Below, in pieces: positions 10,171-61,335 of a stretch of DNA of 64,000 nt. Numbering within the stretch: the stretch's first letter is position 1; the number at the start of each line of letters is the position of its first letter. This DNA is from Methanosarcinales archaeon (GTDB lineage: Archaea; Halobacteriota; UBA148; JAUWXC01): positions 823,286 to 887,285 of the forward strand of contig CP061209.1 in assembly GCA_026016205.1 (NCBI GenBank), given 5' to 3'. The notes below the pieces were generated by a model. It was not told the origin of the DNA. It searched no databases and saw only the letters and a list, made by a program, of their open reading frames with translations. A program made the translations under genes and the position numbers.

Positions 10171-10316
10171 TTGTTTGATGTGCACGAACAACCCCATAAA
10201 TCTAATCCTATGCCCAAAACTCTTCATAGAGGGGTCAAAAAAGCGAAAACTATATAGAGCGCCCCTTAAATCAATAGATGCCGTTATTCGGTGATTTTTA
10301 TAAAGGAGGTGGGAAT

Positions 10317-10523
10317 ACGACTGAATTACCAATTGCACCAGTAGATAGGATTGCAAGAAAGGCTGGCGCGGACAGAGTAAGTGACGATGCAAAGGTGGCG
10401 TTAGCTAACATATTGGAAGATTATGGGCTCAAAGTATCAGCAGAGGCTGTGCGCCTGGCAAAACACGCTGGCAGAAAGACGTTGAAGGCAGAGGACATTA
10501 AATTAGCAGTACAAAGGCTTTAA
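10317..10523 (+). CDS. Archaeal histone (HMf-like); expected start position is ACG
   Basis: [21 protein letters not shown]...[14 protein letters not shown] histone fold; SD GGAGGTG at 10305-10311; in-frame upstream ATG at 10278 is an alternative start. Confidence 0.93.
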
Positions 10524-25962: not shown

Positions 25963-26031
25963 CTATGGTTTGTATCGCCCATTTCTTATTTAAGTGATTT
26001 GAAAAAGAGGTGAGCAGATTCAAAAGCGAGG

Positions 26032-26214
26032 TCATTCTTTCTCTATGAATATGAGATAGTAAGAGAATAAGGCGACAAATGATAGACATATCAAGGATGC
26101 TGTAAACGATCCGAGCCAGCCCCAGACTGTGAACATAGTTCCTACAATAAAAAGAATAGATGCAAAAAGAAAGGCCGTGTGTGAATAGTGTATAAGTTTT
26201 AGGATATTGCCCAT
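26032..26214 (-). CDS. Small 2-TM hypothetical protein
   Basis: GGTGATGTT-ATG start context, two hydrophobic helices. Confidence 0.5.
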   Translation of the reverse strand: MGNILKLIHYSHTAFLFASILFIVGTMFTVWGWLGSFTASLICLSFVALFSYYLIFIEKE

Positions 26215-26340
26215 AACATCACCCGACCGCCATTCTGCATTCTTACAATACATTCTTTAATATATCTATCATTATATAAATACCATCGTGTATATAAATA
26301 TTTCCTTGTTTGCCTCTGGTCGCTCAATAAAACCCAGATA

Positions 26341-27824: not shown

Positions 27825-28739
27825 CTATTTCGGATACGGAATTACAATTTCTATGAATTCCTTCGCAATGGATGTGTTCTTGAAGACTGTCTTTGCTTCC
27901 TTCAATAATGGGGTTGCGTCTTCAGAATAGCGTGAGCTGATGTGGACCAACACAAGCTCTTTTACACCCGCTTTGGATGCAACCGTTGCAGCTTCTTTTG
28001 CCGTAGAATGCCCGGATTCAATTGCCCAGTCTTGTAGATCGTCGCTTAAAGTGCCGTCATGTATGAGCAAGTTTGCATCCTTCGCTGCTTCTATCACGGC
28101 GCTACAGGGCCTTGTGTCGCCGGTGTAAACGATTTTTCTCCCAAGTCTCGAAGGACCTACAACCTGCTCTGGCTTGATTTCCTTGCCAGCAACGAACACG
28201 GATTTGCCTGAATGTAATTTCGAGAACAATGGGCCTGGTGGAACGCCCAATTCGATGGCTTTTTCCCTATCAAATCTACCCAGCAATGGCTTTTCGTCTA
28301 ACACATATCCGATACTTGGAACGCCGTGGTCGGTTTTTATCGCCCTAACCGTATATTCAGGGTGTTCAACGACGTCACCTGGTTTGAGCTCGTGGTCTTC
28401 AATCTTGAAACTCAGTTTGTAGTAGCCTAATCCGATAAGTACCTTAACAAGTTCGCGAATCCATTTGGGTCCGTAGATGTGCAGTGGTTCGGTTCTCCCC
28501 TGGAAGCTCATGGTTTGTATCAGCCCAGGGACGCCAAGAAAGTGGTCCCCATGATAATGCGTGATAAAGATAGATGTGAGATTCATCATTCCTGTTTTTG
28601 CCCTCATCATCTGCTGCTGTGTCCCCTCGCCACAGTCGAACAAAAGGAGTTCTCCCTTTCGATTGACCATGACGGCGGAGGGATTTCTATTAGGTGTTGG
28701 GAGGGAGCCCCCTGTGCCAAGGAATATCACTTTGAGCGT
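27825..28739 (-). CDS. rnz: Ribonuclease Z; expected start position is ACG
   Basis: FLGTGG..P...R, DCGEG, THYHGDH, GVPPGP exosite, YTGDT, HISSRY; SD GAGGTG at 28745-28750. Confidence 0.95.
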   Translation of the reverse strand, partial: TLKVIFLGTGGSLPTPNRNPSAVMVNRKGELLLFDCGEGTQQQMMRAKTGMMNLTSIFITHYHGDHFLGVPGLIQTMSFQGRTEPLHIYGPKWIRELVKVLIGLGYYKLSFKIEDHELKPGDVVEHPEYTVRAIKTDHGVPSIGYVLDEKPLLGRFDREKAIELGVPPGPLFSKLHSGKSVFVAGKEIKPEQVVGPSRLGRKIVYTGDTRPCSAVIEAAKDANLLIHDGTLSDDLQDWAIESGHSTAKEAATVASKAGVKELVLVHISSRYSEDATPLLKEAKTVFKNTSIAKEFIEIVIPYPK

Positions 28740-28743
28740 AACA

Positions 28744-29754
28744 TCACCTCATTTTCTCAAGACGAATTATCCGGCGGGTCAAACTTTTATGAACCCGCTG
28801 CCGATGGTGCCCGATGGTTGTGAAACCTGCATCCTCTGCAATTTTTTCTATGGGAATTTGTGACACCACTACGGCTTTGTTACCCGGCCGGAGGATACGA
28901 TGTATTTCCTTTAATGAGCAATCATATAAATCTTCCAGTGATCTGGCCCTAAACAAGGCTGACCTGCCATACGGCGGATCCGTCACAACCGCATCCACTG
29001 AGTTGTCAGCCAATCCTAGATTGCGGGCATCGCCGATCATCAACTCACCACCTATGCCATAGTGCCGTAGATTTGTGTTGGCGCCAAGTACCATCTTGCG
29101 CTGTACATCTGCGCCGATGCACCTGGCGCCGGTCAGCCCTGCCTCGATTAGTATACCTCCAGTCCCGCAGAAGGGATCCAGTAATGTTCCTCCTTCGCAG
29201 ATAGAAGAAATATTCACCAGGGCCCTTGCTACCCGCGGCAATAATGCTCCTGGGTGGAAAAATAGTCTGCGATGGGGGCGCCTGGATTCGTACTGGGTCC
29301 TGTCCACAGAATACATCAATTTGCCGAATGCACATTTGCCTTGAGTGAGAACGAGGCGGAACACCACGTCAGGATTTTTGAGATCAACCCTATAGCCTCG
29401 CTTGTAAATAATGGCACCTGCCTGCTTCTCCAGGTCCGAGATATTAAGCACGTGTTCCTTGACCTGCCGGGCCCTAACGCAAAAGGTTTCGTCCTTTTTG
29501 AGGTTTAAATCCACAGTGCCAACTAAATCGGCGATTGAATCAGTGTCGGCAGGACAAAACCCGAGCACCTCTAAGATATTGTGAGTCATGGCAAGGCGTG
29601 ATGCAATGGACGGCATCTCCTCGATTTCGATGATGAAGAGCATATCCAAATCAGCAACTTCTTTAAAGCACGTGTCAAATGCCTCTAAGCAGCCTAAAAC
29701 CTCTGCCTTGGGCAGCGTTTCATGCTCACCTGACAGCTCAAATGCGACCTTCAT
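28744..29754 (-). CDS. trm11: tRNA m2G10 methyltransferase (THUMP + MTase)
   Basis: FELSGEH..LP.AE, LDPFCGTGG, TDPPYG, VHKSLTR. Confidence 0.9.
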   Translation of the reverse strand: MKVAFELSGEHETLPKAEVLGCLEAFDTCFKEVADLDMLFIIEIEEMPSIASRLAMTHNILEVLGFCPADTDSIADLVGTVDLNLKKDETFCVRARQVKEHVLNISDLEKQAGAIIYKRGYRVDLKNPDVVFRLVLTQGKCAFGKLMYSVDRTQYESRRPHRRLFFHPGALLPRVARALVNISSICEGGTLLDPFCGTGGILIEAGLTGARCIGADVQRKMVLGANTNLRHYGIGGELMIGDARNLGLADNSVDAVVTDPPYGRSALFRARSLEDLYDCSLKEIHRILRPGNKAVVVSQIPIEKIAEDAGFTTIGHHRQRVHKSLTRRIIRLEKMR

Positions 29755-61217: not shown

Positions 61218-61335
61218 TGCCCCAGCCGGGATTTGAACCCGGGTCTTAGACTGTCTGCACAGACTTTTTGATCAAACTTTTTGGTAAAAAGTTTGTGCCG
61301 CAGGCCTAAAGGATAGTCCACTACCCTACTAGGGC
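61218..61335 (-). tRNA. tRNA-Arg(GCG) with 45-nt intron at 37/38 (61253-61297)
   Basis: GCCCTAG/CTGGGGC acceptor, TAGGC-CTGCGG^A-GTCTA anticodon arm, CCGGG-TTCAAAT-CCCGG T arm; BHB helix CTGC/GCAG with GGC and ACA bulges. Confidence 0.9.

Follow-up and report, generated by a model that had tools for sequence, protein, structure and literature searches.

ACG as a probable, naturally occurring but rare start codon of histone and rnz in a Methanosarcinales archaeon

RESULTS

The histone gene and its start region

The window analyzed here is a stretch of 64,000 nucleotides of DNA from a Methanosarcinales archaeon, the genome of which we call G000. A histone gene lies on its + strand (10317..10523), with 68 codons followed by TAA (10521-10523). 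The frame opens with an ACG (10317..10319, + strand) that is aligned with the ATG of orthologs and is the same in G000 and in the genomes G001 and G002; we propose this as the initiation codon. The + strand of the window reads ataaAGGAGGTGggaatACG and then ACT GAA TTA CCA. A Shine-Dalgarno (SD) sequence, AGGAGGTG, is found at 10304..10311 on the same strand. It is an 8-nt match to the anti-SD and ends 5 nt before the ACG, with a spacer of ggaat (10312-10316, + strand). This arrangement, from the SD through the spacer and ACG to the CCA codon, had been pointed out in a first-pass annotation made from the letters of the window, and every coordinate of it is correct.

A TATA-like box, ctatatag (10250..10257, + strand), follows the sequence gcgaaaa and is presumed to be the histone promoter. 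This block is also conserved in the other two genomes. Applying the usual archaeal distance from TATA box to start, the transcript would begin near 10280 and have a 5' UTR of ~37 nt. In G000 there is an in-frame ATG 13 codons 5' of the ACG (10278..10280, + strand), which is not conserved. Downstream of the ACG in G000, the first canonical in-frame codon is the GTG of codon 27, which already lies within the histone fold. RNA structure around the two starts, of histone and rnz, gave z-scores of 0.31 and 0.17, with no significant signal. A small hairpin with a T-run (TGCCGTTATTCGGTG ATTTTTATAA) is located at 10279-10303 of the window, within the presumed 5' UTR of the histone. We considered this as a terminator and rejected it; there is one such site where 0.7 are expected, and the T-run is absent in G001.

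As encoded, with ACG read as Thr, the histone product begins TTELPIAPV. It matches PF00808 with a score of 71.6 bits (cut-off 21.4), residues 2-65 falling on profile positions 1-65, and the NCBIfam archaea_histone model NF043032 with 91.4 bits (cut-off 50). The 68-codon frame read from the ACG is therefore a single histone fold of the HMf type (~65-70 residues and above the family cut-off), as had been recognized in the first-pass annotation. The N-terminal segment (M)xELPIAP is conserved and under selection in the comparison of G000 with G002. A search of the 987-kb genome gave one match, and this is the sole histone found in G000.

The rnz gene and its start region

The rnz gene encodes ribonuclease Z and lies on the - strand (27825..28739), with 304 codons followed by TAG. 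The proposed initiation codon is the ACG at 28737..28739 (- strand), which is aligned with the ATG of orthologs. The minus strand reads aaaaTGAGGTGATgttACG and then CTC AAA GTG ATA TTC CTT GGC ACA GGG. The SD, GAGGTGAT (28743..28750, - strand), is an 8-nt match separated from the ACG by gtt (28742-28740, - strand), placing its GAGGTG core 5 nt from the ACG. Here too the SD, the ACG and the core spacing noted from the letters of the window hold at every coordinate. Four codons 5' of the ACG there is an in-frame TGA (28749..28751, - strand; translation K*GDVTLKV in G000, G001 and G002), and a start upstream of this is therefore ruled out. The only canonical alternative start is the in-frame GTG of codon 4 (28728..28730, - strand).

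The rnz product scores 379.4 bits with the RNase Z equivalog TIGR02651 (cut-off 292.95), and 379.6 bits with NF000801 (cut-off 252) where residues 2-301 fall on profile positions 2-304. The sequence HxHxDH is the zinc motif of metallo-beta-lactamases, and it is present in the rnz translation as HYHGDH. Both Lactamase_B_2 and Lactamase_B domains were detected.

The ACG is aligned with position 1 of orthologs

We searched 30 relatives for each gene and then compared the start regions. Outside the genus there were 27 histone loci, of which 14 have ATG in the column of the ACG and one has ACG (genome G014, discussed below). A further eight have ATG or GTG one codon later than this column. The remaining loci are two second halves of doublet histones and two with other N-termini. 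For rnz there were 27 orthologs outside the genus. ATG occupies the ACG column in 19 of these and GTG in one; five others begin one codon earlier, and two have longer N-termini. The expectation that both ACGs would fall at Met1 of the orthologs is thus supported by the alignment columns, and the positions on the PF00808 and NF000801 profiles agree. By alignment, therefore, the ACG is position 1 of both families, a position at which the orthologs mostly have ATG.

The 5' region of the histone gene changes fast within the order, as seen at three loci of genus g2 in the same order (L004, L005 and L006). The histone ATG of G004 lies ~24 nt after a TATA-like box and has a leaderless appearance. G006 and G008 share this promoter and have ~52 nt inserted after it, with a new SD before the ATG. 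In family f3 the histone has an SD with ATG or GTG.

Conservation of the start regions within the genus

The genus contains four species genomes, three of which (G000, G001 and G002) carry both genes in full. In G003, which is 63% complete, there was no histone match, and rnz is present only as a C-terminal fragment. The ACG, with identical SD and identical spacing, is found at both histone and rnz in 3/3 of the genus members that have the genes. Conservation in related genomes had been named as a check on the original reading, and it is borne out at both genes. G000 and G002 have 96% protein identity for the histone and 90% for rnz, and are therefore distinct lineages, not one assembly deposited more than once.

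The 13 nt before the histone ACG, AGGAGGTGGGAAT, are identical in the three species, while farther upstream there are indels and substitutions regardless of frame. In G001 one base of the ATG at 10278 is missing, and there is an in-frame TAA five codons before the histone ACG. One base at 10278 is also missing in contigs of runs X3 and X4, among the differences listed for four runs. G002 has TAG at the place of the G000 ATG, 13 codons before the ACG. In neither G001 nor G002 is there any ATG, GTG or TTG between the upstream stop and the histone ACG. The histone of these two species is consequently left with no canonical start at this end of the frame; G000 has the non-conserved ATG, and rnz has the GTG three codons downstream.

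Comparison of G000 with G002 reveals 27 synonymous and three non-synonymous codon differences in the histone gene, with no non-synonymous change before codon 31. Codons 4-11 contain five synonymous differences (at codons 4, 6, 9, 10 and 11) and no non-synonymous ones. In rnz there are 91 synonymous and 30 non-synonymous differences, and the difference at codon 3 (AAA/AAG) is synonymous. As 60-70% of all codons are the same in G000 and G002, the constancy of the ACG in three species is not significant taken alone. The pattern of substitution nevertheless indicates that the codons directly after the histone ACG are translated and under purifying selection. Taken together with the upstream stop in G001 (TAA GGA GGT GGG AAT ACG), the exclusively synonymous change in codons 4-11 places the beginning of histone translation between that stop and codon 4. 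Within this interval in G001, no triplet other than ACG differs from AUG by a single mismatch.

The ACG might instead be an ordinary Thr codon or untranslated. Translation would then start at GTG 28730 for rnz, and the histone would use ATG 10278 (in G000) or another triplet. All three of G000, G001 and G002 have the in-frame GTG 28730, and this counts against the ACG of rnz. In G000 alone there is the in-frame ATG 10278, close to the predicted transcript start; if transcription starts at or before this ATG it could give a histone longer by 13 residues, which counts against the ACG of the histone. The first-pass annotation had recognized ATG 10278 as a possible start, but its counterpart region has stops in G001 (TAA) and G002 (TAG), with no canonical codon following before the ACG, and codons 4-11 are under purifying selection. 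A GTG at histone codon 9 is found in both G001 and G002, but it is GTA in G000. For rnz, the column of GTG 28730 is not the start in any of the 27 orthologs, and the match to the RNase Z profiles already begins at residue 2 or 3. In addition GTG 28730 is 14 nt away from the SD core, as are just 6/319 SD-led first starts. We therefore regard a start elsewhere as unlikely. That the histone is initiated at its ACG, whichever the mechanism, is very likely. For rnz, where GTG 28730 is the alternative, the same is probable.

Shine-Dalgarno strength and the rarity of ACG across the genome

A crude gene call using a codon-usage score and greedy non-overlap gave 1024 genes. An SD of at least 8 nt at the first canonical start was found in 10/1024 of these calls. 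The commonest SD spacing is 5 nt, seen in 88/319 genes with an SD of at least 5 nt. Both ACGs have an 8-nt SD at a spacing of 5, and so are functionally spaced. There are 94 matches of 8 nt to the anti-SD genome-wide, and a canonical start follows in 19 of them, so that an SD by itself is no proof of a start.

We then made a whole-genome ortholog comparison with G004, which belongs to the same order. Of the 1024 genes 776 were matched, and 308 pairs were testable, meaning that the first canonical start of G004 is ATG followed by conserved residues. The G000 codon aligned to this ATG is ATG in 207 pairs, GTG in 16, ACG in seven and TTG in six. Among the other codons GAA occurs six times, and ATA, ATT, AAA and AAG five times each, with the rest fewer. 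Five of the seven ACGs have a canonical start within 1-5 codons, an ATG that comes immediately next in four and five codons later in one; a sixth ACG has an ATG four codons before it. Among the ACGs aligned to a G004 ATG, only that of the histone is without a nearby canonical start, rnz having its GTG three codons downstream. When ACGs aligned to any canonical codon near N-termini were included there were 20 columns, and a long SD at a spacing of 5 was found only for histone and rnz.

No general use of ACG was apparent. Within the 1024 gene calls, an ACG before the first canonical start is led by an SD of at least 5 nt in 4/71 cases, and three of these four have ATG 1-2 codons later. An all-ORF scan of G000 revealed no excess of ACG. 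Nor is there an excess after the unexplained SDs of at least 8 nt, where ACG accounts for 2/11 site-codon combinations. A third site of the same form lies outside the window, with the sequence GAGGTGAT-tca-ACG (G000:C1:572008-572380, ACG at G000 572021) immediately beyond the stop codon of the gene upstream. The frame opened by this ACG has 120 codons and is hydrophobic and membrane-protein-like, with its first ATG 24 codons in. No homolog of this ORF was found in five relatives (G001-G004 and G006). There are thus two firm cases of an ACG start and one candidate ORF among ~1000 genes, and the feature is rare and not genome-wide. The proposal of recurrent non-canonical initiation at ACG consequently stands in part. 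It is supported by the Met1 position, the conservation in three species and the occurrence in a second genus (below); the genome-wide enrichment that was to be looked for was not found, and only histone, rnz and the one candidate ORF look ACG-started.

Histone starts were also surveyed more widely. ACG combined with the histone N-terminus pattern occurs in 12/401 genomes of the phylum; five of these are at the gene start (genera g1 and g5) and seven are internal Thr codons. Diverse histone loci from metagenomes have a canonical start in 80/80 cases (74 ATG, five GTG and one TTG), placed 2-6 codons before the conserved Pro. The best metagenome match to the histone is 72% identical.

A second genus with ACG at the histone start

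In G014, which belongs to a different family of the phylum, the histone start region reads GGAGGT-aagatat-ACG ACA ATA ATA CCA, with TAA six codons upstream. We searched 41 genomes of its family (f4) and read 30 histone loci (L115-L143 and L020). In the start column there are 12 ATG, seven TTG and three ACG, and the other eight loci begin 1-2 codons earlier. Apart from the three with ACG, all 27 loci thus have ATG or TTG in this column or beside it. Weak histone starts are therefore common in this family (TTG 7/30, ACG 3/30). The three ACG loci are those of genus g5 (G014, G036 and G051), all of its species; each reads GGAGGT-N7-ACG where the histone starts, and in two there is a TAA six codons upstream. 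The recurrence of ATG to ACG that had been noted within the window thus extends to a second genus with SD and ACG at the histone start. Judging from these sequences, the ACG start of the histone appears to have arisen a second time, independently, in g5.

Two features of g5 complicate this. G036 has an additional ATG within the histone SD. Moreover, the g5 histone has two in-frame ATA codons after the ACG, which counts against an ACG start. The closest named match to the g5 histone is a protein of 66 residues from Methanosalsum zhilinae DSM 4017 (98% identity), and its annotation begins with the first ATA, two codons past the ACG. This shows that the annotators found no canonical start, and makes ATA an alternative start in g5.

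The occurrence in g5 also bears on whether the ACGs could be errors of sequencing or assembly where the true codon is ATG. The window comes from one contig of 987 kb that was derived from a metagenome, and two sequencing errors had been allowed for when the ACGs were first noted. Yet the same ACG, SD and spacing are present in three species, at both genes, in genomes with 4-10% protein divergence, and the histone ACG is found again in a second genus that includes a single-contig genome of 2.1 Mb. Error is thus extremely improbable.

A possible mechanism of initiation at ACG

On the evidence of sequence comparison, ACG is most likely a rare natural start codon in histone and rnz. With moderate confidence overall, we favor direct near-cognate initiation at the ACG by Met-tRNAi, positioned by the SD. 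The unusually long SD of 8 nt at the optimal spacing of 5 nt would bring the ACG into the small-subunit P site. There it would pair with the ordinary initiator Met-tRNA (CAU) despite the A-C mismatch at the middle position, leading to an N-terminal Met. In the histone this Met would probably then be removed before the Thr. The output per mRNA would be expected to be well below that of ATG, making the ACG a heritable setting for low translation. We infer decoding by initiator tRNA, N-terminal Met and reduced output at ACG. The TTG and GTG histone starts that are frequent in neighboring lineages fit the idea that the strength of the histone start is evolutionarily tuned.

The tRNA complement of G000 was predicted with aragorn, giving 42 tRNAs. 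The initiator tRNA-Met(CAU) is normal, with an AGCGGGG acceptor stem, and the elongator tRNA-Thr(CGU) is ordinary. No initiator-like tRNA with anticodon CGU was found among the 42, the stem of tRNA-Thr(CGT) being of elongator type. aIF1 is present in G000. If instead the elongator Thr-tRNA(CGU) were to initiate at the ACG the product would have an N-terminal Thr and no Met. G000 does have a tRNA-Thr(CGU) gene, at 820202-820273, but on inspection this tRNA has elongator features (a G-C first pair, and no AGCGGGG initiator stem), and archaeal aIF2 selects the initiator tRNA. We regard initiation by Thr-tRNA as highly improbable.

Experimental precedent for initiation at ACG by Met-tRNAi comes from E. 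coli. [quoted passage not shown] The likeness to our case is that an SD-led ACG can start translation (10.1101/063800). The difference is that the reporters were artificial, whereas here ACG would be the natural, conserved start of native genes in an archaeon with initiation of the aIF1/aIF2 type. Expression in the 0.1-1% class would be very low for a chromatin protein, and this counts against the ACG start.

The ACG could also be converted into AUG by C-to-U editing of the mRNA, allowing a normal AUG start. This would account for the occurrence of ACG, and of no other near-cognate codon, in place of ATG at both genes and in either lineage, and there is one gene of the cytidine/dCMP deaminase family in G000. 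However, ATG to ACG is a plain transition that can recur without a special mechanism, and the transition neighbors of ATG were its commonest replacements in the comparison with G004 (GTG 16, ACG 7 and ATA 5). The start-codon editing of chloroplasts requires dedicated nuclear-encoded machinery. The only deaminase-family gene found in G000 is generic. It encodes 153 residues, and as the family is present in 12/14 control genomes its presence is uninformative. We know of no C-to-U editing of mRNA in archaea, and a literature search for it, with most subscription journals outside its scope, found none. The established precedent is the ACG-to-AUG editing at some start codons of land-plant chloroplasts, which likewise involves an ACG where homologs have ATG, in conserved genes and with SD-type mRNAs (PMC9845219). 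We judge editing to be highly improbable here. If it did occur, the histone and RNase Z mRNAs would be substrates of the first system of mRNA editing known in Archaea, one that had arisen or persisted in two separate lineages; this too is highly improbable.

Relation to known systems

Where ribosomes scan and recognize a Kozak sequence, ACG in a favorable context is decoded by initiator Met-tRNA at reduced efficiency and is kept by selection. Those ACGs serve as alternative upstream starts, whereas here ACG would be the only start of a housekeeping protein, and the ribosome would be positioned by an SD on an mRNA of the prokaryotic type. The AUU start of bacterial infC is a conserved non-canonical start in a housekeeping gene that sets its expression, through an autoregulatory loop involving IF3. 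No such loop is evident for histone or RNase Z.

The start codons of NCBI table 11 are TTG, CTG, ATT, ATC, ATA, ATG and GTG. ACG is absent, and gene callers therefore cannot annotate ACG starts and will mis-call such genes. A Prodigal-type caller would yield an 81-residue or truncated histone here. Archaeal initiation is described in a review as allowing AUG, GUG and UUG (PMC4705826). The GUG and UUG starts of archaea and bacteria resemble the proposed ACG start in being non-AUG codons read by initiator tRNA, where weaker starts tune expression (PMC4705826). ACG differs from GUG and UUG in that its mismatch is at the second codon position. A literature search, with most subscription journals outside its scope, yielded no description of an ACG start for archaea or for histone genes.

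A conserved ACG start for a sole histone, arising twice, hints that initiation in archaea (by aIF1/aIF2 together with an SD) copes with a mismatch at the second codon position, to a degree sufficient for essential genes. Weakening of the start codon may, on the same grounds, be a way to set the dosage of a chromatin protein. Methanosalsum zhilinae DSM 4017 is a type strain, and if the same ACG is present there the question could probably be addressed in a cultured relative.

Other observations on the genome

Introns are present in 23/42 of the aragorn-predicted tRNA genes of G000. Examples are the tRNA-Arg(GCG) gene at 61218-61335 of the window, and those at G000 87369, 149067, 506611 and 566339. 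Several of the introns share a hairpin-like sequence AAACTTTTT...AAAAAGTTTGA(T/C)CAAAA just 3' of the anticodon, which suggests a family of related and possibly mobile introns.

The region 26005-26338 of the window differs between populations. Contigs of three other runs skip 64-314 bases there and carry 12-23 other letters, which suggests that related populations vary here through an insertion or replacement.
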